Virus record (IMG/VR): IMGVR_UViG_2698536392_000023
Coordinates: 1 to 10,802 of that record
Direction: 5' to 3' (one strand)
Source of the DNA: a virus
Taxonomy: Duplodnaviria; Heunggongvirae; Uroviricota; Caudoviricetes
Length of the DNA: 10,802 nt
Shown here: positions 1 through 10,802 of the stretch, piece after piece
Layout: each line of letters opens with the position of its first letter
Position numbering within the stretch: position 1 is the stretch's first letter
Notes under the pieces: generated by a model
Database searches by the model: none
The model's input: only the letters and a program-made list of their open reading frames with translations
Told to the model about the DNA's origin: nothing
Made by a program: the position numbers and the translations under genes

Positions 1-258
1 CAGAACCACAACAAAGTAATACTCCGGGGCTCTGGTGGCGCTGATTACTGTGCCTTCTCCACCTGTCGGCTTCACCACAACAGGTGTGCTCACATCACCT
101 TCTGCGACAATCGCCTGAATAAGTGCTGCGCCATCATCCGTATACGAAGAAAACGGCCCACCGTATGGTTGCCATCCTTCACGAATTTTTTGCGCAAGTG
201 CATCAGCAAGGTCTGACGGCGATGCCGCCCTGACCACATCGTAGTGTTTAAATGCCAT
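1..258 (-). CDS. 5' part of a CDS whose N-terminus is in the window (86 codons, continues past position 1); DUF1737-like N-terminus as recalled for prophage NanS-p/YjhS-type esterases
   Basis: ATG at 258-256 (minus) preceded by GGAGGA 5 nt upstream; reverse-complement translation MAFKHYDVVRAASPSDLADALAQKIREGWQPYGGPFSSYTDDGAALIQAIVAEGDVSTPVVVKPTGGEGTVISATRAPEYYFVVVL with no stop before the window edge. Absent from the ORF track, which holds only ORFs with a stop in the window; the track ORF 90..356 is a different frame. Family assignment is from memory. Confidence 0.6.
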   Translation of the reverse strand, partial: MAFKHYDVVRAASPSDLADALAQKIREGWQPYGGPFSSYTDDGAALIQAIVAEGDVSTPVVVKPTGGEGTVISATRAPEYYFVVVL

Positions 259-451
259 GAATCCTCCCGGCCGGGATAATATTGTGAGTAAAATGAGGAG
301 CGGGCTGAAATCCGGAAGTTACAGGACAATGGCAGAAGAGAGACAACAGCCCGCAATACGAAAAAGGCCGCGCTATTGCGCAGAGTGATTACTGTCGGAT
401 ATTATTCGCCAGCTGAAATATTACTTCACGTTTTGTTGTTTATTCCTTGCC

Positions 452-480
452 GCCCGCGTCTCCCTGCGCGGGCTTTTTTT
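452..480 (+). terminator. Rho-independent terminator-like hairpin (GCCCGCG-N8-CGCGGGC followed by T7), plus-strand orientation
   Basis: 7-bp GC-rich stem 452-458/467-473, 8-nt loop, T-run 474-480. Confidence 0.5.
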
Positions 481-491
481 GTCCATAAGAA

Positions 492-511
492 AGCCCCTCC
501 GGAGAGGGGCT
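492..511. other. 8-bp perfect inverted repeat AGCCCCTC-CGGA-GAGGGGCT; with the 452-480 hairpin forms a back-to-back hairpin pair
   Basis: Arms 492-499 and 504-511 are exact reverse complements; on the minus strand it is followed by TTCTTAT. Confidence 0.45.
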
Positions 512-707
512 GGAGAGTGGCGCTATGTGCCATTGCATGGTGCCGGGTGCCTCCCGGTGAATTCAGTACCAGCACCTGAATCCGCGATTATCCCATATAC
601 CTACTCGCTGATTGCCCCTCCGCACAGGGGGATTCACCATGCCAGTTTCTTTTAACAAACTCCCCGCAAACCAGACAACAGTCAACCGCCTGAATTGTGA
701 GACATTT

Positions 708-733
708 AAAAAAAAGGCCCGCAAAAGCGAGCC
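708..733 (-). terminator. Rho-independent terminator immediately after the tRNA cluster
   Basis: Minus-strand read GGCTCGC-TTTT-GCGGGCC followed by T8 (plus A-run 708-715); 7-bp stem with one G-U pair. Confidence 0.75.
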
Positions 734-747
734 AGGGAAAATAAGTG

Positions 748-824
748 TGGCGCGTTGTACTGGATTCGAACCAGTGACCGATTGCTTAGAAGGCAATTGC
801 TCTGTCCGGCTGAGCTAACAACGC
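748..824 (-). tRNA. tRNA-Arg, anticodon UCU (reads AGA)
   Basis: Reverse complement GCGTTGTTAGCTCAGCCGGACAGAGCAATTGCCTTCTAAGCAATCGGTCACTGGTTCGAATCCAGTACAACGCGCCA folds as a cloverleaf: perfect 7-bp acceptor stem, GCTC/GAGC D-stem, anticodon loop CTTCTAA, T-loop TTCGAAT, encoded CCA. Confidence 0.85.
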
Positions 825-837
825 ATGATGCATATAA

Positions 838-914
838 TGGACCGCCATCGGGGACTTGAACCCCGCGCAGCCAGCTTCGAAGGCTGGCGCTCTTTCCTGA
901 TGAGCTAATGGCGG
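838..914 (-). tRNA. tRNA-Arg, anticodon UCG (reads CGA)
   Basis: Reverse complement CCGCCATTAGCTCATCAGGAAAGAGCGCCAGCCTTCGAAGCTGGCTGCGCGGGGTTCAAGTCCCCGATGGCGGTCCA: 7-bp acceptor stem CCGCCAT/ATGGCGG, anticodon loop CTTCGAA, T-loop TTCAAGT, encoded CCA. The 5' nucleotide is C, which is unusual. Confidence 0.75.
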
Positions 915-921
915 TATGTGA

Positions 922-997
922 TGGTGGACCTTGCTGGATTTGAACCAGCGGCCTGGCGATTATGAGTCGCTCGCTCTCACCACTGAGCTAAAGGGCC
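922..997 (-). tRNA. ileZ: tRNA with anticodon CAU; body resembles the Ile2 (lysidine, ileX/ileZ-type) class rather than Met
   Basis: Reverse complement GGCCCTTTAGCTCAGTGGTGAGAGCGAGCGACTCATAATCGCCAGGCCGCTGGTTCAAATCCAGCAAGGTCCACCA; anticodon loop CTCATAA, T-loop TTCAAAT, encoded CCA. Acceptor position 3-70 is a C/T mismatch. Ile2 versus Met isotype is from recalled similarity and phage context. Confidence 0.75.
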
Positions 998-1032
998 GGG
1001 AGCAGAATAATAACGGTCCGTAATTAATTCCG

Positions 1033-1060
1033 CAATAAAAAACCCGCTCGGCGGCGGGTT
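1033..1060 (-). terminator. tR'-like intrinsic terminator downstream of the late promoter
   Basis: Minus-strand AACCCGC-CGCCGA-GCGGGTT followed by TTTTATT; sits about 45 nt downstream of the candidate -10. Confidence 0.65.
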
Positions 1061-1107
1061 GTAGAAACTCTTCTAATGTCAGGCATAAAAAGCCCATCGT
1101 TATGACG

Positions 1108-1135
1108 AATTTACCACAGATTCCGGAAAAATCAA
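1108..1135 (-). promoter_or_regulatory. pR'-like late promoter (Q-modified), sigma70-type
   Basis: Minus-strand TTGATT (plus 1130-1135), 16-nt spacer, TAAATT (plus 1108-1113), immediately downstream of the Q-like stop codon at 1141. Confidence 0.55.
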
Positions 1136-1140
1136 CCTTG

Positions 1141-1962
1141 TTACCTAGTTACCTTTTTTAACTGCCGCTCAGCCCATGCTTCTTCAATATCAAACCGGGT
1201 CACCAGCGCATCATAGAATTTCTTAACTGTTTTTTCCCATGACGCGCGTGTTATCTGGTTTGTCACCTCGCATATAGCATTAAATGCCTCCGTTGATGGT
1301 AGTCTTTTATAGCCACGACCACCACAACGCTGGCAGTCTCTGATAACAGGCATACCACGTTTTACCGACTCTTCACGGTAAAGGGCGACACCACGCCCAC
1401 GGCAATCCTTACAGGCGGTGTAAACCTCACCCTTTCCGCCACACTCCGGACAGGCAACTTTTACCACCTCCCTGACTTTTTTCCATTCTTCCCAGTAAGA
1501 CGGATACACACCTTTCGTACACTTTGCCCATACCGGCGGCTTACCATCCGGATACTGGACCTTGTTTGTAAAAACTACGCTTTCAATAAATTTTTCCCCA
1601 TAGCAACAAGGGCACTGCTTTTTACTCGCTGCGCTGCGGGCATAATCCTCAAAAGCGTACGAAGCCATAATGCGCATCACTAACGGTTTTATTTCTGCCG
1701 GAAGTTTTCTCAACGCCGCCACACGATCGCACCGACTGAGTGCATAATCTGCCAGTAATTCTGTTGCCCGCGCCCTGTCATTCATACTGATGCCCATTTT
1801 CCCCAGGAACGCAGAAAACCCCATCTCAGCCCGATTCTGTGTCATGCTCTGCGCGGCCATCACATCAGTGATACTCAGCGCATCTTTTGACGTTGAGGCC
1901 GATGCATCGGTCAGGCAAGGGGATTTTGGGGAGTAGTATTTCGGTAAATCTTCCAGTTTCAT
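1141..1962 (-). CDS. Q-like late antiterminator (273 aa) with three CxxCxGxG zinc-finger motifs
   Basis: Complete ORF; position directly upstream of the pR'/tR'/tRNA block and downstream of rusA; motifs CPECGGKG, CKDCRGRG, CQRCGGRG; start ATG overlaps the rusA stop (ATGA). Confidence 0.65.
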   Translation of the reverse strand: MKLEDLPKYYSPKSPCLTDASASTSKDALSITDVMAAQSMTQNRAEMGFSAFLGKMGISMNDRARATELLADYALSRCDRVAALRKLPAEIKPLVMRIMASYAFEDYARSAASKKQCPCCYGEKFIESVVFTNKVQYPDGKPPVWAKCTKGVYPSYWEEWKKVREVVKVACPECGGKGEVYTACKDCRGRGVALYREESVKRGMPVIRDCQRCGGRGYKRLPSTEAFNAICEVTNQITRASWEKTVKKFYDALVTRFDIEEAWAERQLKKVTR

Positions 1963-2333
1963 TTTTTGACCTGCCCTTCAAGCATTATGGGGTAAATCTT
2001 CACCCCCAGACGTCCACCAGATACTGGCTGAGCACGAACGATATTGATTTCATCAAACTGCTCATCGTCCATTAGCAACCCCGCATGCGTCAGCGCATCC
2101 AGCGGCGCTTTCAGAATATTGTCCAGGTCACGGCGGCGCTTATCCGGTGGCTCGGCAATAATCTTTATCGCCAGCCTTCCGGACAGGTTTAATTTCAGCC
2201 GCTGCTGGCGAACAATAAGTGCCACATCCCGGCGATAACGCTCACCGGCTTTTGATACAAAATATGTGCTGCCACGACGTCGCCAGTAGGTGTTCACCGT
2301 CGGCGGGTAAGGCAAAACAAACTCTATACGCAT
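1959..2333 (-). CDS. rusA: RusA-family Holliday junction resolvase (124 aa)
   Basis: Typical size; N-terminus LPYPPTVNTYWRR and the DKRRRDLDN acidic motif resemble RusA; SD AAGAGG 6 nt upstream of ATG at 2333. Confidence 0.85.
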   Translation of the reverse strand: MRIEFVLPYPPTVNTYWRRRGSTYFVSKAGERYRRDVALIVRQQRLKLNLSGRLAIKIIAEPPDKRRRDLDNILKAPLDALTHAGLLMDDEQFDEINIVRAQPVSGGRLGVKIYPIMLEGQVKK

Positions 2334-2345
2334 CAGTAACCTCTT

Positions 2346-2873
2346 TTACCCGAGCACGCCGGTTGCAAAGGCGTGATCAAGAAAACGAAAAATTAAATCA
2401 ACCTGGGAACCATGCTTTTCTTCGAACGCCAGTGGATCCGCATGAAGCTCGTTGTGATGCTCCCGACACAGCGGTAGCGTGAAAATATCGTGGGATTTTG
2501 TTCCCATTCCGCCCTGACCATGACCAATCAGATGATGAGGATCGTCCGCTGGCTTACCACAACACGCACACGGCTGTGTCTTTACCCAGCGTGTGTATTT
2601 CTCATTTACCCAGCGGCGACGTTTAGGTCGTTTCATGAAGGATTCCGGAGACTCCGGATCAACGGCAATGCTGACCACCGTCTTTTCCTGTGGTGGGTTC
2701 TGTTGCTGGTGGGTGTGAGGTGGTAGCGCAATATTTTTTGTGCGCTGCTTCAGTATGCTGGTGGCGGTCTGTTCTCCCGGTATGATGTCGCTTTCACGGT
2801 ATACGGAGCGGATTTTTTCCGCCGGTAATCCCAGAGAACAACGCGCTACTGCCTCAGGTAGTGCATCCACCAC
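2346..2873 (-). CDS. HNH-like zinc-finger protein, DUF968/YdfU-like C-terminal region (175 aa as drawn; start uncertain, may be the 3' part of a frameshifted longer gene)
   Basis: Motif CACCGKPADDPHHLIGHGQGGMGTKSHDIFTLPLCREHHNELH. ORF begins with GTG and has no recognisable SD; the same frame stays open upstream to 2954; 28-nt overlap with the upstream ORF. Confidence 0.55.
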   Translation of the reverse strand: MVDALPEAVARCSLGLPAEKIRSVYRESDIIPGEQTATSILKQRTKNIALPPHTHQQQNPPQEKTVVSIAVDPESPESFMKRPKRRRWVNEKYTRWVKTQPCACCGKPADDPHHLIGHGQGGMGTKSHDIFTLPLCREHHNELHADPLAFEEKHGSQVDLIFRFLDHAFATGVLG

Positions 2874-3448
2874 CTGATTGCAGGCCGCCCACAGGATAAT
2901 TCGGCCAGCGATAACTCCCTCTCCTGCGTGCCGCTTATTGCGTGACGGATGACGTCAATCATCCAGGCAACCAGATTCTGCTGAGCAAGTTGATCGAGTG
3001 ATTCTGATGTCTGGTCGCGCAGCTGGTTGTCACAGTGCCAGCACAACACCATCGCGCCGGTACCGTAACGGTGAATGACTGTTTCGCTGTGATGATAATC
3101 GCCGTGTGGCCACTGGCAGGATTTCACGTGACGTAATAACCAGTCAGACAGTGCACCAGCGCCGCCAGCTGCACGAATCACCCGCTCATCGCTGAAAAAT
3201 GGCAGCAGTGATTTATCTTCCGCCAGCGGCTGGCGAACAGTAGGAACCGCTCCAGATGGCAGCGCCCGCATGTTTTTCGGTTCCGGCTCCACCAGTATTC
3301 TGCCGTTATGGAATGCTGACATTGATTCACGGCCTGGCTTAACGATAACCAGACCGAGTTCCGGTACCAGAACAGGTCGAAGTAATACCCGCACATTACC
3401 TCCAGACGCGCTGACGGTAGCAGGCATGTGTCCGTGGCAGATGTGCAC
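2846..3448 (-). CDS. HNH-like motif protein (about 200 aa as drawn; start codon uncertain)
   Basis: Motif CQWPHGDYHHSETVIHRYGTGAMVLCWHCDNQL. ORF-track start is a GTG; first ATG is at 3427; overlaps neighbouring ORFs at both ends. Confidence 0.5.
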   Translation of the reverse strand: MHICHGHMPATVSASGGNVRVLLRPVLVPELGLVIVKPGRESMSAFHNGRILVEPEPKNMRALPSGAVPTVRQPLAEDKSLLPFFSDERVIRAAGGAGALSDWLLRHVKSCQWPHGDYHHSETVIHRYGTGAMVLCWHCDNQLRDQTSESLDQLAQQNLVAWMIDVIRHAISGTQERELSLAELSCGRPAIRWWMHYLRQ

Positions 3449-3668
3449 GAACAGGAAGATATACAGAAACGGTCCAGGTCAGACGATCAGCGTTCAGACT
3501 CCGCTCCACACGGACACCGCGACGCAGATACGCCTCTTGAGGCATATCTGCCTCATCGATCGTACAGAACAGATAGTGAAACCAGCCATACTGAGGCGCA
3601 CGAAAACGCCTCCCCTGCTTAATTTCCAGGTCGGCTTCAGAATTGTGGGATTTTATGTGTTGTGTCAT
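3396..3668 (-). CDS. Hypothetical protein, 90 aa
   Basis: ATG at 3668 with GGAGAA SD 6 nt upstream; the C-terminal 18 codons overlap the next ORF in another frame. Confidence 0.5.
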   Translation of the reverse strand: MTQHIKSHNSEADLEIKQGRRFRAPQYGWFHYLFCTIDEADMPQEAYLRRGVRVERSLNADRLTWTVSVYLPVRAHLPRTHACYRQRVWR

Positions 3669-3717
3669 CGGATTCTCCGGTGACAGCAGGTGTCAGTTGT
3701 TCAGGCTGACTGCGCGA

Positions 3718-3746
3718 ATTGTAAGGCAATACGCCGGAATGTACAA
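3718..3746 (-). promoter_or_regulatory. Candidate sigma70 promoter for the downstream accessory operon
   Basis: Minus-strand TTGTAC (plus 3741-3746), 17-nt spacer, TACAAT (plus 3718-3723). Confidence 0.4.
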
Positions 3747-3771
3747 ACAGAAAACCCGTCAGTAAGACGGG
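3745..3771 (-). terminator. Intrinsic terminator of the YgiW-like moron
   Basis: Minus-strand CCCGTC-TTACT-GACGGG followed by TTTTCTGTTT, beginning 19 nt after the stop codon at 3790. Confidence 0.7.
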
Positions 3772-3789
3772 CTTAACAAGCAGGGGCGG

Positions 3790-4134
3790 TTACTTTAATA
3801 ATTTCAGTGCCTTTACATCAACTTCAACACTGCTCAGGTCTTTATCAATTTCACCCTCAATTCTTACTTTGTCTTTCGGAGAAACATTCTGCCCGGCCCA
3901 TACGCTGTCATCGATATCCGTGACAATTGTCCCGCTATTATCACGAAACTCATAACGTTCATCACCCACTTTTTTAACGATGCTCCCTTCAAGGATAACC
4001 CATGCATCATCCTTCAGTTCTTTTGCCTGCGCTACTGTTGAACGCTCTGCTTCAGGCCCTTGGAAACCGCCCTGCTGTGCAAAAACGCCAAAAGACACAC
4101 CGGAAATAAGTGCTGCAATCAATACCTTTTTCAT
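3790..4134 (-). CDS. YgiW/YdeI (BOF, bacterial OB-fold) family secreted protein with signal peptide (114 aa); prophage moron
   Basis: N-terminal signal peptide MKKVLIAALISGVSFGVFA; family-typical motifs QGGFQGP, DDAWV, SGTI, VSPKDKV, DKD..SVE.DVK; SD AGAGGG upstream; own terminator. Confidence 0.8.
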   Translation of the reverse strand: MKKVLIAALISGVSFGVFAQQGGFQGPEAERSTVAQAKELKDDAWVILEGSIVKKVGDERYEFRDNSGTIVTDIDDSVWAGQNVSPKDKVRIEGEIDKDLSSVEVDVKALKLLK

Positions 4135-4253
4135 TCATAGCCCTCTTTCAGAGATGAACATTCAAACAGCATTTTCAGTATGATAAAGCGCGGGTGCGTT
4201 GAGGATGCCTGACACATCAGAGGTGGCGAGGGATTTCTCCCCCGCCAGGTCTC

Positions 4254-4409
4254 TTACTCCTCAGGTTCGTAAGCTGTGAAGACAGCGACCTCCGTCTGGC
4301 CGGTTCGGATTCGTACCTCGCAGAGGTCTTTCCTCGTTACCAGTGCCGTCACTATGACGGTAATACAGATGACGATCAGGGCGATTAACATCGCCTTTTG
4401 CTGCTTCAT
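4254..4409 (-). CDS. hokD: Hok/Gef-family type I toxin (51 aa), closest in my memory to HokD/RelF
   Basis: MKQQKAMLIALIVICITVIVTALVTRKDLCEVRIRTGQTEVAVFTAYEPEE; SD AAGGAG upstream of ATG at 4409. The ORF-track entry 4254..4466 is the same frame extended to an upstream ATG. Confidence 0.85.
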   Translation of the reverse strand: MKQQKAMLIALIVICITVIVTALVTRKDLCEVRIRTGQTEVAVFTAYEPEE

Positions 4410-4422
4410 AGCCTGCTTCTCC

Positions 4423-4451
4423 TTGCCTTTCGGCGCGTAAGAGGCTAACCT
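4423..4451 (+). promoter_or_regulatory. Candidate promoter for a sok-like antisense RNA
   Basis: Plus-strand TTGCCT (4423-4428), 17-nt spacer, TAACCT (4446-4451); predicted transcript runs antisense across the upstream in-frame ATG (4466) and its GAGG SD. Confidence 0.35.
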
Positions 4452-4584
4452 ACATGTGTCTAGCATGAAATTGGCCTCAGATTAATGTTAGGCGTCTTGC
4501 AGGACGCGTAATGTTAACTGGGGCTTTTCTCTGTCTGCCTTACGGTGGCATGCCCGAGGCAGACAGCCTCAAGCACCCGCAGCA

Positions 4585-4612
4585 ATTCTACTTAACTCTC
4601 GCTTTACCGCAA
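4585..4612 (-). promoter_or_regulatory. Candidate promoter of the hok mRNA
   Basis: Minus-strand TTGCGG (plus 4607-4612), 16-nt spacer, TAGAAT (plus 4585-4590); gives a leader of about 170 nt, typical for hok mRNAs. Confidence 0.4.
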
Positions 4613-4624
4613 ACCGTTTTTACC

Positions 4625-4646
4625 CGATATGGGAATTCCCATATCG
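4625..4646. repeat. 22-bp perfect palindrome CGATATGGGAATTCCCATATCG
   Basis: Exact reverse-complement symmetry; lies between the stop of the 34-aa ORF (4655) and the candidate hok -35. Confidence 0.9.
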
Positions 4647-4654
4647 TAATGAAT

Positions 4655-4759
4655 TCAGTTCCCTAGTCGATCCATCAAAAACACAACCAGGCAGTAAACG
4701 CCCACAACAGCAATAACAGCCAGCGCACCTTCCATTGCCAGTGAAATATCATCCGACAT
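4655..4759 (-). CDS. Small hydrophobic protein, 34 aa (MSDDISLAMEGALAVIAVVGVYCLVVFLMDRLGN), predicted single transmembrane helix
   Basis: ATG at 4759 with strong SD AAAGGAGGG 4-5 nt upstream; absent from the ORF track because it is under 60 aa. Confidence 0.5.
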   Translation of the reverse strand: MSDDISLAMEGALAVIAVVGVYCLVVFLMDRLGN

Positions 4760-4794
4760 ATTCCCTCCTTTGGTGTTAATCCCGGCGAACGTTT

Positions 4795-4878
4795 TTACCC
4801 CCACCGACAAATAACATATACTAAAAAATCAATAGCTATAGCAACGCCTGTAATTGCAAAGGCTTCAGGCCAGATCAT
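4795..4878 (-). CDS. Small hydrophobic protein, 27 aa (MIWPEAFAITGVAIAIDFLVYVICRWG)
   Basis: ATG at 4878 overlaps the stop of the DUF551 ORF (ATGA); SD GGAGG 8-12 nt upstream. Confidence 0.45.
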   Translation of the reverse strand: MIWPEAFAITGVAIAIDFLVYVICRWG

Positions 4879-5460
4879 TGGCGCACCTCCTGCGGCGGTT
4901 CTGGTAGCGGCATCCAGTCGGTTACATTGCGGCTCTGTGTTTCGAAAAATTCATCACCATTACGGACTACATCAAAAAACTCACCGTCTCGATATTGCGC
5001 ATAAAGAACGAATGCGCCATCACATAAAATAATTACGTGCTGACCATCATCCGGCATTCGCTCACTACAGCTTATCCAATCATCCAGAGTTACCGGATAG
5101 TTGGTTGACGTTTCCGAGATTTCCCGAAAATTATTGGTTGACGAACCCTTTTTTTTCCCGAAAGTTTCCAGCCTGAAGCATGGCGGCGCTGTCTGGCGGG
5201 GCAGCATATAGCGGCACGTATATTTCCGGTTCCTTATCAGCACCGGGTTGCTCTTCCAGTGAGAATGTCTTTCCGGTAAATCGATTCATATAAAGCACGG
5301 GCTCTGCTTCCAGCGAAGCCTGAGCAACAAGGGCCAGTGCTAAATCCAACTCAATTGCCTCGAGAGAATTTTTGAATGCTGTCTGTTTTACTGCAAATTT
5401 CATCGCCTTTACATTTTCACTAACATGACTGATTAACTGCTCTTTTGTAAAAGTGGTCAT
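4875..5460 (-). pseudogene. DUF551-domain phage protein split into two frames at an A8 (plus-strand T8) tract
   Basis: Frame A 5460..5131 (ATG at 5460, SD AAGGAG) ends ...REKKGFVNQ; frame B 5243..4875 reads ...FGKKKGSS... and carries the DUF551-like C-terminus (DDWISCSERMPDDG...WMPLPEPP). The frames switch at the T8 run 5149-5156. Confidence 0.6.
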
Positions 5461-5516
5461 CTCATTCTCCTTTGATGCGAATGCCAGCGACAATTGAAGC
5501 CTGATAGCTAATTCAC

Positions 5517-5912
5517 TCACAATACCGCCTCCTGAAAATTGCCCTGATAGAACGCCAGTACACGCAGCATAACTTCACTCTTCCGGCACTCGCCACAGAT
5601 TATGTTCTGTTGTCTGTCGTAGCGGCGTATTTCTCCGTCTGGTAACTTTCGAATCAATGTCTGGTCGGTTGTTTTCTCCGCTGCCTTACGCCATACGCGA
5701 TACACCTGTTCTGATGTAAAAACACCGTATTTACCGGGCATGTATAAATCGCCGCAAGCCAGTACATCCACAAGGCAACGTCTGACTGAATGCCAGCCTG
5801 CTCCCGTCGCTCTCTCCAGTTGTGATATCGTCATGCGTTCATTTTTGCGTACCAGCCCGATAATTCGGGCCTTCAGTTCTTCACGCTGTTCGTGTGTAAA
5901 AGGTTTCGCCAT
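5517..5912 (-). CDS. Hypothetical phage protein, 131 aa, possible winged-helix fold
   Basis: ATG at 5912 with GGAGG SD 7 nt upstream; segment TISQLERATGAGWHSVRRCL looks HTH-like. Confidence 0.6.
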   Translation of the reverse strand: MAKPFTHEQREELKARIIGLVRKNERMTISQLERATGAGWHSVRRCLVDVLACGDLYMPGKYGVFTSEQVYRVWRKAAEKTTDQTLIRKLPDGEIRRYDRQQNIICGECRKSEVMLRVLAFYQGNFQEAVL

Positions 5913-5927
5913 AAGCGCCTCCGGCTA

Positions 5928-6653
5928 TCACTTTTCCGACACAATACGACCGGATGAATCGACAATCTGCCGAACAATATCCCAGTGCTTGTTCAGATCC
6001 CGCAGCGCGGCGCAGACTCGCTCCCACTTCTGAACCTGACCTTTTGCTCGGCGCAGCTCGCGGTTAGCCACATGCAGCGATGGTAGAATCAGGTCATCTG
6101 CTTTCGTTTCAGTGAACGATTGCTGCAACTTCACAATGTCCTCCACCGCTTCTGTTTTAATTTCTTCCTGTGCAGCCGTTTCCTGGACTGGTAACGCAAC
6201 ACCTGCTGGCTGAGGAAGGGCTTTACCCTCCGTTTCAGCTACGGATGCAGCTTTCTGCTCTGCCGGTAAATCAACGCCCGGTATGCAGTAACGAAATTTA
6301 CCATCCTGATTCACGCGAATCAGACGCCCTTTGCTGATTGCCATTGCCAGCGATGAATTCGCACGGCGGGAGGTAATTCCGAACATCAATGCCAGCTCAT
6401 CCGCCGTTTGTGGGCCATGATGTTCAATCGCCTCAGTCAGCATTTGCGCTGTCACTTTCGGTACCGGTGACACTGGTTCACTTTCACCAGTCTGAGTCAG
6501 CCACCACATCGACCCCTTGTTATCCGCTTCACCACGGCGCTTCAGTTTCCACAGTTCGTTGACAGCATCTTCGCGGCTGATTCCAAGGCGCGATGCCACT
6601 ACCTGTGAAGAGGCTTTTTTCAGTGCTTTCAGTGCGTCAAATACAGTTTCCAT
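5928..6653 (-). CDS. Phage protein with two tandem winged-helix-like domains and a C-terminal coiled-coil (241 aa), possibly DUF1627-like
   Basis: ATG at 6653 with GGAGGA SD; internal repeat of HTH-like segments ([22 protein letters not shown] and [26 protein letters not shown]). The ORF-track start at 6671 is a TTG. Confidence 0.65.
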
Positions 6654-6674
6654 TAAAACGTCCTCCAACAAAAA

Positions 6675-7421
6675 TTACTTCACAACCCTCTGATTGCTGA
6701 CATTTGGACGCCAGCTATCCCAGTTAAACGTCACCCATCGACCACCGCTCATGGTCATCCGGTCCATAATCCTCTCACCAAGAAGCGTGCTCATTGCGGC
6801 ATGATTCAGGTTTGTTAACATCCCGACACTGCACAGTGATGCTGTCCGGCGATCAATTATCTGGTGTAATACCACCTGCTCGTTTTTCGTCTCCCGCTGA
6901 ACGCCTATTTCATCCAGGACCAGCAAATCAACCCCGCAAAGCTCCTGTAAAAATTTTTCCCCGGATTTGCCGTTGTCGTAGCTGTCATGCAACACGCTCA
7001 TGACATCAGACACGGTGACGATAATCACGCTGCGCCCCTTCGCCATCAGCCGGTTACCCATCGCCGCTGCAAGGTGATTTTTCCCGGTGCCGGTTTTACC
7101 GCTGAACACAAAATTCGTGCACCCGGTCATCAGTTCGTCAGCTATGGATTTGGCCTGGCTCAGCGCGTATTTTTGCCCGTCGTTCTGCACCTGATAATTC
7201 GCAAACGAGCATTTGCTGTGCAGAGGCTGGATGCCCGAACGATTCAGGATTTTTTCCACCCGCAACTGGCGATTCTGGCGGTTAATCTCCTCGCTGCGTT
7301 TTCGTCCTTCAGCAAGTTGCCATTCCCGCCACTCCTCCACCGTCCGGTACGGTGGAACCGCCCCCTGTGGTGCAAGTCTGCGAATACGTTCAAGAACCCC
7401 AACTGCCGCAATGTTTTTCAT
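6675..7421 (-). CDS. DnaC-like replicative helicase loader (AAA+), 248 aa
   Basis: Walker A GKTGTGKNHLAAA, Walker B LLVLDEIG, and colinearity with E. coli DnaC (MKN..., NRSGI.PLH..CSF.NY); SD AGGGGGTGA upstream. Confidence 0.85.
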   Translation of the reverse strand: MKNIAAVGVLERIRRLAPQGAVPPYRTVEEWREWQLAEGRKRSEEINRQNRQLRVEKILNRSGIQPLHSKCSFANYQVQNDGQKYALSQAKSIADELMTGCTNFVFSGKTGTGKNHLAAAMGNRLMAKGRSVIIVTVSDVMSVLHDSYDNGKSGEKFLQELCGVDLLVLDEIGVQRETKNEQVVLHQIIDRRTASLCSVGMLTNLNHAAMSTLLGERIMDRMTMSGGRWVTFNWDSWRPNVSNQRVVK

Positions 7422-7427
7422 GACACG

Positions 7428-8498
7428 TCACCCCCTGAATCCCGGCGGTATTTCAGTGTCCGGTTCAGAAATGTGATTCACGCAACGCTGGTTGTTCGTG
7501 CCGCTTACCGGGAGCAACCAGGGGTTTTCAAAATTCCGGTCCGGCCCAAAAAACGTCGTCGCTCGCTGAACAAATTCCGTTCCCGCTTTCCCGGTCGCCG
7601 CCAGGTATCTCGCGTAACGCCTCACACCATCCAGCATGGTCTCTGGTGGCACCCCCTCGCGCAATCTGGCCTTCCAGGCACTGAATGCGGATTTCTTCGG
7701 GTTTGCTCCGGCACGCAACGGGTACTCCCGCCAGACCTGTTCGAACACATCCGGATAATCCACTCGTCCCACAGACTGCCCGGTGTTTTCCGGGACTACC
7801 CGATCGGCTTCCCGCTGAATGGCGGAATCGGCTTCGGGCTGCTGCAGTTGGTGTGATTGCTCCGGCCTTGCGGTCATCACCTGCTGCACAGCGCCCGAAT
7901 CGGCTTTCAGCGCATACGCTGAATCGGCTTCCGGTGTCGTGCCTACTGGCTGACCAGGATTGACGGTCTGAACATCCCCTGCCTGGTTCGTGGCGTTTTT
8001 TACGCCATGGACCATAGTGTTTTGATCTTCTTGATCTGTATCTTTATCTGTATCTTTATCTGTCGTGACTCGTCGTGACATGTGCGTGACATTTCGTGAC
8101 GCGCCGTGACAATCGCCATTTTGTTCCCGCTTTCTTTCCCTCTCTCGCTGCGCCCTCTTGCGCTCTGCAGGAGATTTTGCGGTTTGCGAAATATTGCCGT
8201 TGTCCTCTTTAAGCACCTGGCGTTTTTCCCATCCAGTGATTAAATCACCATCAAGTACCCGCCCCTGCATCGTCTGCAAAATTGAATCAATTACCTCTTC
8301 TGTCACGTCGAGCGCACTTGCCAAATCTTCTGTCGTGACATCAATGTGACCTCGCGTGACATTTCGTGACGCGCTCACCAGGAGGTGGATATACACTGCC
8401 ATCACTGTTGCAATTGGCTGCCCTGACACCCTGGCAATTGTTCGCCACTTAGGGTCATTTGGCATGTCATGCCATAATCTGAGCCAGGCGTTAGCCAT
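7428..8498 (-). CDS. O-like replication initiator (replisome organiser) carrying internal origin iterons, about 356 aa
   Basis: Sits upstream of the DnaC-like gene; iteron arrays lie inside the coding sequence as in lambda O. Probable start is ATG at 8498 with SD AGAGGTGA; the ORF track starts two codons earlier at a GTG. Confidence 0.7.
   Translation of the reverse strand: MANAWLRLWHDMPNDPKWRTIARVSGQPIATVMAVYIHLLVSASRNVTRGHIDVTTEDLASALDVTEEVIDSILQTMQGRVLDGDLITGWEKRQVLKEDNGNISQTAKSPAERKRAQRERERKREQNGDCHGASRNVTHMSRRVTTDKDTDKDTDQEDQNTMVHGVKNATNQAGDVQTVNPGQPVGTTPEADSAYALKADSGAVQQVMTARPEQSHQLQQPEADSAIQREADRVVPENTGQSVGRVDYPDVFEQVWREYPLRAGANPKKSAFSAWKARLREGVPPETMLDGVRRYARYLAATGKAGTEFVQRATTFFGPDRNFENPWLLPVSGTNNQRCVNHISEPDTEIPPGFRG
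8034..8063. repeat. Tandem 12-bp repeat (ATCTGTATCTTT x2.5) encoding a TDKD repeat in the initiator
   Basis: Exact copies at 8034-8045 and 8046-8057, partial at 8058-8063; moderately AT-rich, adjacent to iteron array A. Confidence 0.85.
8064..8110. repeat. Iteron array A: five CGTGAC repeats at 10/11/10/10-bp spacing (candidate replication origin)
   Basis: CGTGAC at 8064, 8074, 8085, 8095, 8105; helical-turn periodicity. Confidence 0.8.
8334..8374. repeat. Iteron array B: four (C)GTGAC repeats at 10-11 bp spacing; includes a 21-bp exact copy of part of array A
   Basis: Repeats at 8334, 8345, 8355, 8365; GCGTGACATTTCGTGACGCGC occurs at both 8084-8104 and 8354-8374. Confidence 0.8.
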
Positions 8499-8569
8499 AC
8501 TCACCTCTTCTGATACCGAATCTTTTTACTCACGAGTTGCCGGAAGCGATTCGATATGGCTATTATCAC

Positions 8570-8995
8570 TCAATGCACTGCCACAGCATTTCCTGCCGGG
8601 CCACCACGGTTCATCTGATTGAAACCGGCGATTGCCACCGCGACAAAATCATCAGCGTCTCTCACCAGTCGCTCCCGCGTCTCCACCAGCTCCCGAAAAT
8701 AAGCTGAACTGTGGCTGCGCATTCTGGCCACCAGCAAAGGTGGCATTGCCTTTTCGATCGCTGGTAACAACGCCTGAATTTTTTCAACTGCATCAGGGGT
8801 GTCTTTCTCTACCCAGCGGAAAATTTTCTGGGTATTGCGAGCCAGGGCTTCCGGATGGCTGTCGTCATACAGTTCCGGGAACGTCATACCCAACTCAAAA
8901 TAAGCCTGGGTTATTCCAGCTGCTGGAACTTTCTCACCATCAGGATATGCCCAGGCATTCATCGCCATGCGGATGTGCTCATGTTTGATTTTCAT
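8570..8995 (-). CDS. ydaT: YdaT-like protein (cII position; family reported as toxic in Rac prophage), 141 aa
   Basis: Size and position downstream of the Cro-like gene match Rac ydaT; N-terminus MKIKHEHI; SD AGAGG upstream; 17-nt overlap with the ydaS-like gene. Family call is from memory. Confidence 0.55.
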   Translation of the reverse strand: MKIKHEHIRMAMNAWAYPDGEKVPAAGITQAYFELGMTFPELYDDSHPEALARNTQKIFRWVEKDTPDAVEKIQALLPAIEKAMPPLLVARMRSHSSAYFRELVETRERLVRDADDFVAVAIAGFNQMNRGGPAGNAVAVH

Positions 8996-9302
8996 GAATC
9001 ATTTGCCTCTTGATGCTTCGGGTATGATCGTTTTCGTCATTTGGTTGCTTCATCGACATATTCTGCGAATAACATGACGAGCGTCGTAAGTATGTCCAAT
9101 CAACATCAGGACGAAGTTCTTCACACAGGACACCACCTTTTGTTGCTCGTTCAATCGCAGGACATCTCTCAGCAGGCAACTGACGTACACCTTTGATCCA
9201 TTGATTTACGCTTGGAGGAGATACACCTAAAAGCCTAGCCATTGCTGATTGCCCACCGACAACAGCACAAGCTCGTTTGAATGAATAGTTATCTTTTTTC
9301 AT
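8979..9302 (-). CDS. ydaS: YdaS-like Cro-type HTH protein, about 107 aa
   Basis: HTH segment QSAMARLLGVSPPSVNQWIKG; ATG at 9302 with GGAG SD (the ORF track begins at an upstream GTG, 9323); divergent from the repressor across an operator region. Confidence 0.65.
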   Translation of the reverse strand: MKKDNYSFKRACAVVGGQSAMARLLGVSPPSVNQWIKGVRQLPAERCPAIERATKGGVLCEELRPDVDWTYLRRSSCYSQNMSMKQPNDENDHTRSIKRQMIHENQT

Positions 9303-9329
9303 CGAATGAACTCCAAAAAACACACAATA

Positions 9330-9359
9330 ATATTAGGCTTAGCCTAATGTGATTATCAA
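9330..9359 (-). promoter_or_regulatory. PR-like promoter for the ydaS-ydaT-replication operon
   Basis: Minus-strand TTGATA (plus 9354-9359), 18-nt spacer, TAATAT (plus 9330-9335); spacer contains operator O1. Confidence 0.45.
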
Positions 9360-9398
9360 TAGGCTATGCCTAACGCTTCGAGAGTAGGGATTGCCTAA
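9333..9398. promoter_or_regulatory. OR-like operator cluster: three TTAGGC-N3-GCCTAA palindromes spaced 25-26 bp centre to centre
   Basis: O1 TTAGGCTTAGCCTAA 9333-9347 (perfect); O2 ATAGGCTATGCCTAA 9359-9373; O3 TAGGGATTGCCTAA 9385-9398 (one half-site imperfect). Confidence 0.7.
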
Positions 9399-9426
9399 CG
9401 CGATGCGCATAGGAGACTATTAAGCA

Positions 9427-9903
9427 ATGCTTAGTGGTAAAGACTTAGGCCGAGCGATAGAGCAGGCCATTAACAAAAAAATTGCATCAGGAGCCGTCAA
9501 ATCAAAGGCGGAAATCGCACGTCATTTCAAAGTCCAACCACCATCAATCCATGACTGGATTAAGAAAGGTTCGATAAGTAAAGACAAACTTCCAGAACTA
9601 TGGCGTTTCTTTTCTGATGTGGTTGGTCCAGAGCATTGGGGGCTTAACGAATACCCCATACCAACCCCATCCACTTCAGATACAAAAAGTGAACTTTTAG
9701 ACATAAACAGCCTTTATCAAGCCGCCTCTGATGAAAAAAGAGCAATTGTGGCTTTCCTCTTATCTGGAAATGCTACGGAGCCTAGTTGGGTTGATCATGA
9801 CGTTCGCGCCTACATTGCCGCAATGGAAATGAAGGTAGCTAACTATCTGAAAAATCAAGAATCAAAACGGAAAAGCCAGAACATCACCAAGACAGGAACT
9901 TAA
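9427..9903 (+). CDS. racR: RacR-like prophage repressor (cI-position HTH protein), 158 aa
   Basis: Divergent from the Cro-like gene across operators; HTH segment SKAEIARHFKVQPPSIHDWIKKG; AGGAG SD; size matches RacR. Family call is from memory. Confidence 0.65.
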   Translation: MLSGKDLGRAIEQAINKKIASGAVKSKAEIARHFKVQPPSIHDWIKKGSISKDKLPELWRFFSDVVGPEHWGLNEYPIPTPSTSDTKSELLDINSLYQAASDEKRAIVAFLLSGNATEPSWVDHDVRAYIAAMEMKVANYLKNQESKRKSQNITKTGT

Positions 9904-9997
9904 ACTTATATGGTCCGACGGGAAATTCCTAGTTCCCGTTAGTTAACTCCTACTACCTCTCCCACAAACCATCACCTATTAGGTCGCACCCAAACCA

Positions 9998-10036
9998 TTA
10001 GGCATAGCCTACTGACAAGCAATTAGGCATTTCCTA
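9998..10036. promoter_or_regulatory. OL-like operators: two further TTAGGC-N3-(G/T)CCTA palindromes downstream of the repressor gene
   Basis: TTAGGCATAGCCTA 9998-10011 and TTAGGCATTTCCTA 10023-10036; centres 25 bp apart. Confidence 0.6.
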
Positions 10037-10040
10037 TAGT
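10012..10040 (+). promoter_or_regulatory. PL-like sigma70 promoter overlapping the OL operators
   Basis: CTGACA (10012-10017), 17-nt spacer, TATAGT (10035-10040). Confidence 0.5.
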
Positions 10041-10244
10041 TTTCCCATACCAACCCATCCCGTCCCACACAATACAGGGCAATACCTAGAGTTACCCGGC
10101 AGTGGTCAGGGATTAAGTAGCCAGCCCGAGGCGTATGAACATGACGGCGGGAACACTTTGTATAACAGCGCAGCAGGTTTTTAGTTCCGCTACCCCAGCG
10201 TTAAGGGGAAATGAGGTCAGCATGGATACTATCGAGCTCCGATC

Positions 10245-10802
10245 CCTAAAGTAACCAGAGCCAGGCTCACCATGGAAGACTGGAAAAAAATTTACAATGC
10301 AACGCCTGAAAAACACTTTATCCGTAACGCAATGCTTCTTGCGATTGTTACTGGTCAGCGCCGTGATGACATTTGCCATATGCGTTTTTCAGATGTGTGG
10401 AACGAACACCTGCATATTACCCAGGGAAAAACTGGAATGCGTCTGGCGTTACCGCTGACGCTACGCTGTGATGCCATTGGGATATCGCTAAAAGAAGTGA
10501 TTGATGGATGCAGGGACAGAATATTGAGTCCATACCTGATTCATAGTCGGCACCAAAAACAACCAAAACCAATGAGTAAAGACAACCTGAGCGATTACTT
10601 TGCCAAAGCGCGGGAGCTGGCTGGAATAATTCCACCAGCAGGAAAAACTCCGCCAACATTTCATGAACAACGTTCTCTATCAGAACGGCTGTACCGTGCA
10701 CAGGGTATCGATACAAAAACATTACTGGGACATAAAGTCCAGGCAACCACCGATCGTTATAACGATACTCGTGGTCAGGAATGGGTTAAATTGGTTGTTT
10801 GA
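10245..10802 (+). pseudogene. Lambda-type tyrosine integrase, C-terminal catalytic domain only (N-terminal about 175 aa missing)
   Basis: Colinear with the lambda Int C-terminus (TGQRR, HEQRSLSERLY, LLGHK, DRYNDTRGQEW, stop at 10802); in-frame stop at 10212-10214 and no Int-like sequence upstream in any frame. Confidence 0.8.

Follow-up and report, generated by a model that had tools for sequence, protein, structure and literature searches.

The late region of Shiga toxin (Stx) phages has the flanking order Q, tR' and the tRNA genes ileZ-argN-argO on one side of stxAB and a DUF1737-containing nanS-p gene on the other. The same flanking order, without stxA and stxB, is found in the 10,802-nucleotide viral sequence analyzed here (IMG/VR record IMGVR_UViG_2698536392_000023, positions 1 to 10,802; referred to below as the window), and this raises the question of what the approximately 490 bp between argO and nanS-p represent. 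A preliminary description, made from the sequence alone, had taken positions 259-747 for an unoccupied toxin slot in either a stx-negative relative of Stx phages or a phage that lost the cassette. Our analysis indicates that the window very likely represents the region controlling the late genes of a lambdoid prophage that is stx-negative and in decay, and that the 490 bp hold a convergent pair of small RNA (sRNA) genes.

RESULTS

Source prophage and orientation

The window is 100% identical, as the reverse complement, to the chromosome of E. coli 2013C-4830 (NZ_CP027325), and late-gene transcription therefore proceeds on the minus strand of the window. The annotation of the source genome describes a lambdoid, Rac-like prophage with racR, a ydaT-like gene, replication genes, hokD, DUF968, RusA, Q, the tRNAs, a nanS-p-like gene, holin, lysozyme and terminase. 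Several of the prophage genes are broken, including a truncated integrase, frameshifted DUF551 and DUF968 genes, a partial YdfR gene and the nanS-p-like gene with its internal stop. Decay is also visible at approximately 2346-3395, where the open reading frame (ORF) of 175 aa at 2346-2873 represents no more than the C-terminal end of the frameshifted DUF968. Elsewhere in the window, the sok antisense RNA was detected at 4404-4578 on the minus strand (Rfam RF01794, 116.9 bits against a threshold of 59), adjoining the hokD gene annotated by PGAP and forming with it a type I toxin-antitoxin module.

Elements flanking and filling the 490-bp region

The elements identified in the late region are as follows, in the order of late transcription.

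1141..1962, minus strand: late antiterminator Q gene, 273 aa (PF03589 Antiterm, E 4e-52; PGAP "antitermination protein")
1035..1135, minus strand: pR'-like promoter and tR' terminator (terminator from scan, promoter by eye)
748..997, minus strand: tRNA cluster ileZ (CAT), argN (TCG), argO (TCT) (ARAGORN; Rfam tRNA; PGAP tRNA-Ile/Arg/Arg)
708..733, minus strand: intrinsic terminator after argO (scan; stem 716-733, 7-bp G+C, T8 at 708-715)
704..715, minus strand: insertion point of cargo (stx), unoccupied here (breakpoints against Stx2 prophages; breaks in the phage database)
481..671, minus strand: STnc100-family sRNA gene, EcOnc05 allele (Rfam RF02076, 138 bits against a threshold of 47)
411..480, plus strand: convergent partner sRNA of the EcOnc08/21/42 type, short form of ~70 nt (probe, Sakai Hfq peaks, terminator)
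376..405, plus strand: candidate promoter of the plus-strand sRNA, TTGCGC at 376-381, 18-nt spacer, TATTAT at 400-405 (read from the sequence)
361..383, minus strand: terminator-like hairpin 368-383 followed by CCUUUUUCG, in the nanS-p leader (terminator scan)
1..268, minus strand: start of the nanS-p-like esterase gene, with Shine-Dalgarno sequence GGGAGGAT at 261-268, ATG at 256-258 and the first 86 codons (PF08410 DUF1737, E 6.4e-13)

Most of the flanks named in the preliminary description were borne out. The Q-like gene proposed at 1141-1962 was recognized by its Pfam profile, the three tRNAs proposed within 748-997 were found by ARAGORN, Rfam and PGAP alike (922-997 with anticodon CAT, corresponding to Ile2, 838-914 with TCG and 748-824 with TCT, the positions being those of ARAGORN and Rfam), the strong terminator proposed at 708-733 was recovered by the terminator scan, and a profile search with the product of 258..1 returned DUF1737. 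In NanS-p sialate O-acetylesterases, a SASA esterase domain comes after the N-terminal DUF1737; the window covers the DUF1737 part, and the gene runs past the window edge. The source genome annotation, under the label DUF6645, gives it as a pseudogene of 1947 bp that is interrupted by an internal stop. The hairpin at 368-383 in its leader is conserved across all aligned loci, including prophage Sp5 of E. coli O157 Sakai.

For the pR'/tR'-like region proposed at 1033-1135, the terminator half was confirmed by the scan, with a stem at 1041-1060 and a T-run at 1035-1040. The promoter half (TTGATT at 1130-1135, a 16-nt spacer and TAAATT at 1108-1113) was recognized by eye and scored below the threshold of the promoter scan. 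The pR'-tR' interval (1035-1113, minus strand) is predicted to yield a terminated transcript of ~66 nt, which would be comparable to StxS of Stx phages, and it gave a weak, sub-threshold Rfam match to isrK (19.6 bits). The pR'-tR' sequence is specific to the 273-aa Q type; phages whose Q is of another type become homologous to the window only from 1037 on.

The stx insertion point is a single point next to argO

In tblastn searches with the A and B subunits of Stx1 and Stx2, nothing better than E 0.75 was found in the window, and no match at E<=1e-3 was found in the 20-kb source region. We could nevertheless locate the position that stx takes in related phages. The Stx2 prophage of strain RM10466 (L006), which has the same 273-aa Q type, aligned to the window at 2000..707 on its left flank and at 704..1 on its right flank; in Stx2 prophages of this Q type, the flanks are 88% (left) and 86% (right) identical to the window. 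The block between the two flanks in RM10466 comprises 1332 bp, namely, stx2A and stx2B preceded by 50 bp and followed by 41 bp. A second Stx2a phage, of another Q type, had the same two breakpoints and the same 1332 bp, and a 121-nt junction probe searched against the phage database gave matches that broke at window positions 710-712. The breakpoints at 704-707 and 710-712 thus define the stx slot as a point between the T-run of argO and the sRNA module, and not as a region of 490 bp.

The view of 259-747 as the vacant slot could accordingly not be upheld, since Stx2 phages also have nearly all of this region, as part of 704..1, after stxB. The alignment to the Stx2 prophages broke at one point only (704-707). 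The description of the window as a stx-negative relative of Stx phages was in contrast well founded, given that Stx2 prophages with the same Q align on both sides and differ by the 1332-bp stx2AB block. The argO terminator is kept in Stx2 phages as far as the T-run. In a Stx1 phage without the tRNAs, homology to the window starts ~108 nt past stx1B (window position 642), and the sRNA pair is likewise the right-hand border of the toxin operon.

A STnc100-family sRNA on the late strand

The gap had been described as free of ORFs equipped with a Shine-Dalgarno sequence and as holding, besides the strong terminator, only two hairpins. These hairpins are real and are facing terminators, at 492-511 (minus strand) and 452-473 (plus strand), and none of the six small ORFs checked in 259-747 had Pfam support, but the region also contains a full-length STnc100 gene and an RNA gene on the plus strand. 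The match to Rfam RF02076, a family first described in Salmonella prophages, lay above the gathering threshold and covered the full model (1-206), and the copy has its own terminator at 492-511, followed by UUUCUUAU. Its 5' end is probably near 697. The published northern probe for EcOnc05 of E. coli O157 Sakai matches the plus strand of the window exactly at 579-613, so that the RNA detected with it is the late-strand STnc100 copy. In Sakai, EcOnc05 was detected on northern blots at ~222 nt and has an Hfq peak (PMC4104026 supplement).

We analyzed the fold of the family in an alignment of 15 distinct STnc100 alleles, picked from the 27 distinct sequences recovered. RNAalifold yielded 34 pairs, nearly all of which were retained; two showed compensatory changes and most were invariant, and covariation support for the fold is thus modest. 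In this fold, a closing stem of 8 bp (GCAUGGUG/CACCAUGC) encloses three hairpins and is followed by ~25 nt of variable, single-stranded sequence and then by the terminator; the window copy takes the same fold (z = -2.2). Compared to the RF02076 consensus, the closing stem, the inner hairpins and the terminator are the same and the match is full length, whereas the central variable hairpin falls ~20 nt short of its length in the consensus and in most alleles. The sRNA is a mosaic in which three variable segments can be exchanged, as the 15 alleles show: the 5' leader, the central hairpin and the unpaired nucleotides that precede the terminator. In the window copy, a short, non-stx-type central hairpin occurs together with a pre-terminator stretch as in the Stx1 phage. 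We infer that this variable stretch is an exchangeable seed.

No sigma-70 promoter on the late strand passed the promoter scan, and the sRNA could therefore be processed from read-through transcripts. A candidate -10 box is TTAAAT at 704-709, which merges with the T-run of argO; this position is preferred and would fit the northern sizes of ~222-247 nt. Two other promoter candidates were rejected, a conserved TTGAC motif as part of a sigma-70 promoter on account of its wrong spacing to any -10-like hexamer, and a sigma-54 promoter (TGGCAT at the closing stem) because it is not conserved in other alleles.

STnc100 modules were also observed in tandem, ~468-483 nt apart, in seven IMG/VR contigs (L016, L024, L031, L043, L070, L079 and L108) and in one E. 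coli genome; the positions in L009 are 3407-4027 and 2600-3150. The sRNA pair can therefore be duplicated in series.

A convergent sRNA on the plus strand

The terminator of the plus-strand RNA (stem 452-473, T7 to position 480) abuts the end of the STnc100 gene at 481. The Sakai northern probe for EcOnc08/21/42 matches the window exactly at 372-406 on the minus strand, so the RNA detected is encoded on the plus strand. When the Sakai Hfq peaks were transferred by way of the alignment to prophage Sp4, they fell at 502-610 (minus strand), 406-478 (plus strand) and 315-400 (plus strand), assuming no coordinate shift between genome versions at Sp4, with which the probe positions agree. Assignment to the EcOnc08/21/42 type thus rests on probe identity and on the gap-free Sp4 alignment of 95.8% identity, which puts the peaks at 315-478 (plus strand).

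Together with the terminator at 480, the candidate promoter TTGCGC-18-TATTAT would give an RNA of ~70 nt (411-480). Longer plus-strand forms may start further upstream, as judged by the Hfq peak equivalent to 315-400 and a promoter-like site at 252-280 (plus strand), which would give an RNA of ~194 nt. The published northern size of EcOnc08/21/42, ~271 nt (PMC4104026 supplement), is larger than either of the forms derivable from these promoter-like sites.

The layout recalls that of AsxR and AgvB. The RNA is convergent to and abuts a STnc100-type RNA, lies between the moron site and nanS-p, and has a promoter-like site in the conserved leader. The AsxR promoter in Sp5 (TTGCGC-18-TAAAAT, upstream of the 5' end of the Rfam match) has the same -35 element and spacing as the candidate in the window. 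However, the AsxR and AgvB models (Rfam RF02703 and RF02702; 53-62 nt, with a conserved 3' region of ~42 nt) gave no match at E<=10 in window 250-520, and the plus-strand RNA is therefore a positional analogue and not a member of this family. The putative 70-nt form contains a G/U-rich run (GUUUUGUUGUUUAUU), its complement on the late strand being C/A-rich, and this run resembles the G/U-rich seed of GcvB. It is conceivable, if rather doubtful, that the RNA represents a third class of the prophage anti-sRNA slot, combining the promoter position of AsxR/AgvB with a different, G/U-rich body (GUUUUGUUGUUUAUU) that lacks an Rfam family.

Among 130 occurrences of the STnc100 core in IMG/VR, the terminator at this position was of the AsxR/AgvB type (GCCCGAACCCACUCGGGC) in 19, of the window type in 32 and of neither type in 73. 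E. coli AR_0017 (L007), for example, has the AsxR/AgvB-type terminator (GCCCGAACCCACUCGGGC) where the window has the plus-strand sRNA. This variation indicates that the antisense partner is itself a swappable cassette.

Known relatives of the sRNA pair

Tree et al. (2014; PMC4104026) described "convergent sRNAs" between the moron coding sequence and a conserved downstream ORF in eight Sakai prophages. EcOnc05, EcOnc08 and EcOnc21 were mapped in Sakai prophage Sp4, whose late region (ileZ1-argN1-argO1, EcOnc05, EcOnc08/21, ECs_1088) is collinear with window 1000..151 at 95.8% identity without gaps. It has the same toxin-free junction, and both northern probes designed on Sp4 match the window exactly. 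Sp4 differs in ~4% of bases and in carrying an AraC-family regulator before the tRNAs, where the window has the 273-aa Q directly upstream. The stx-negative phage Nil3 of E. coli O157:H7 (AM051322, partial) is 98% identical over window 1037..305 and has an identical junction and the same sRNA allele, but its Q gene is of the 144-aa type and the record stops before nanS-p.

Members of the STnc100 family also lie directly after stx1B in the Stx1 phage (L001, 3875-4084) and directly after stx2B in Stx2 phages (L002, 4034-4248; Sakai Sp5, 207.7 bits). The element after stxB is EcOnc27/sRNA103, an Hfq-bound RNA of ~235-247 nt (PMC4104026, PMC7873438, PMC12711010), which other STEC strains were reported to carry 75 nt past stx2 (PMC12370729). 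The EcOnc27 (sRNA103)/AsxR pair of the Stx2 phage Sp5/933W (PMC4104026) has the same tail-to-tail layout as the window pair, followed by the conserved nanS-p leader. Sp5 differs in the stx2AB genes inserted upstream, in its STnc100 allele, which is only ~70% identical to that of the window, and in the partner, which in Sp5 is the 53-nt AsxR (88 bits in Rfam) and in the window matches neither the AsxR nor the AgvB model. By the descriptions given in the respective papers, PasD1 and PasD2 of EPEC E2348/69 are further relatives of the window STnc100, too diverged for BLAST and with different seeds (PMC8550237; bioRxiv 10.64898/2026.05.13.724894).

These relatives bear on whether the 490 bp could be purely cis-acting, that is, a leader with stacked terminators which insulates nanS-p and the lysis genes and makes no trans-acting RNA. 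Such a function would agree with the presence of four terminator-like hairpins within 490 bp, with the high conservation of the leader (259-383) even in Sp5 and with the lack of a strong promoter for the late-strand RNA in the scan. In Sakai, however, the homologous RNAs are discrete on northern blots, Hfq-bound and partly Hfq-stabilised (PMC4104026 supplement), the related PasD1/D2 have many RIL-seq partners in EPEC (PMC8550237), and AsxR, the sister element at the same position, acts in trans (PMC4104026). The variable single-stranded stretch before the STnc100 terminator, with its likeness to an exchangeable seed, also speaks against an exclusively cis-acting region, which we consider improbable.

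The toxin-free junction is common and is one of several cargo states

Taking coverage of at least 80% of the 121-nt probe in one piece as the criterion, we counted 937 genomes with the uninterrupted junction among 5426 complete E. coli genomes; strains of O157:H7, O145:H28 and O111:H8 belong to this set. About one-sixth of complete E. coli genomes, the reference EHEC strain among them, thus have this exact toxin-free junction.

The cargo was further surveyed in 120 IMG/VR contigs with the conserved sRNA core (130 occurrences), which were classed by the spacing of the core to argO. The direct junction seen in the window was found 29 times and a junction with 29 extra bases 3 times; about 20 cases had an insert of ~650 nt with a 118-aa ORF, about 17 had an insert of ~700 nt, and 5 carried stx2AB. 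Other classes had a TerB-like ORF of 167 aa or a methylase-like ORF of 311 aa. Cargo found at the 704-715 point in other phages comprised stx2AB, TerB-like, DUF3927 and methylase-like genes, and the argO/sRNA junction is the moron site of Juhala et al., as that work is cited by Tree et al. (PMC4104026). Cargo was also present at two further positions, the tR'-tRNA interval (a methylase or HTH gene) and the interval between the sRNA and nanS-p (IraM).

In six loci (L006, L002, L019, L040, L071 and L120) with stx2AB, TerB-like or methylase-like cargo, a ATATCTGCGCC-like stretch, which the window does not have, directly follows the T-run of argO. The different cargo modules may thus have their left end in common.

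The empty junction is unlikely to reflect recent loss of stx

The preliminary description had left room for a phage that lost the cassette, and a recent deletion of stxAB could indeed have left such a slot. In the window, the T8 run at 708-715 merges with a TTTTAAAT motif that borders cargo elsewhere too, and the ~11 nt (ATATCTGCGCC-like) that follow the T-run in cargo-bearing versions, stx2 included, are missing; a deletion between T-runs could therefore have made the window junction. The decay of the prophage would also be in line with such a loss. Microhomology alone, however, gives no direction, and the remaining evidence does not point to a deletion. No stx remnant was detected by tblastn, and the junction is identical in Nil3, near-identical in Sakai Sp4 and present in the 937 genomes counted above. 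Should anything have been lost, the boundary on the right-hand side is more like the one bordering TerB-type cargo than the one bordering stx2. Moreover, the 224 nt of the adjoining sRNA module (window 704-481) are 100% identical in many contigs, all of them stx-free and with either the direct junction or the 650-nt cargo, whereas stx2-linked copies are only ~70% identical to the window allele, and recent loss of stx is therefore unlikely. With the empty state as widespread as it is, we regard it as quite improbable that this prophage recently gave up a toxin operon, and we favor the reading of a stx-negative lambdoid prophage with a convergent sRNA pair.

That the region instead codes for small proteins, such as the PGAP pseudo-CDS at 527-652 (plus strand) or "ORF b70" of the Stx1 phage record, is scarcely credible, because even though annotators placed hypothetical CDSs here and several ORFs of 43-77 aa are present, none of the six checked in 259-747 has a Pfam match reaching the threshold, PGAP flags its own CDS as partial, homologous copies differ by frame-breaking indels (e.g., a 20-nt gap), and the ORFs overlap a high-scoring structured RNA.

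DISCUSSION

Lambdoid prophages in pathogenic E. coli carry the convergent sRNA pair with the moron insertion site on one side and the esterase and lysis genes on the other. Published work already covers this architecture, the two sRNAs and their location beside stx (PMC4104026, PMC7873438, PMC12711010, PMC12370729, bioRxiv 10.64898/2026.05.13.724894), and the window adds a further copy of the pair found at the border of stx in Stx phages.

Both sRNAs would most likely be Hfq-dependent base-pairing regulators made in the lysogen; we infer that they have their own promoters, are expressed in this strain and function in trans. Four terminators, namely those of the two sRNAs, that of argO and the leader hairpin at 368-383, would prevent transcription of the tRNAs and sRNAs in the lysogen from running on into nanS-p and the lysis genes. 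After induction, Q-modified polymerase starting from pR' would presumably read through all four terminators. If the plus-strand RNA were indeed a third class at the AsxR/AgvB position, it could be a sponge or regulator of core-genome RNAs, and its longer form could, as an antisense RNA acting in cis, restrain nanS-p together with the lysis genes downstream.

For genome scanning, the locus illustrates that RNA genes can occupy a gap that has no ORFs and lies between familiar phage genes. Many lambdoid prophages of pathogenic E. coli normally have what looks like an empty toxin slot. Variants of the stx2-linked sRNA copy have recently been linked to clinical severity (PMC12711010). The point of interest at this locus is the function and the targets of the EcOnc05 and EcOnc08/21/42 alleles.
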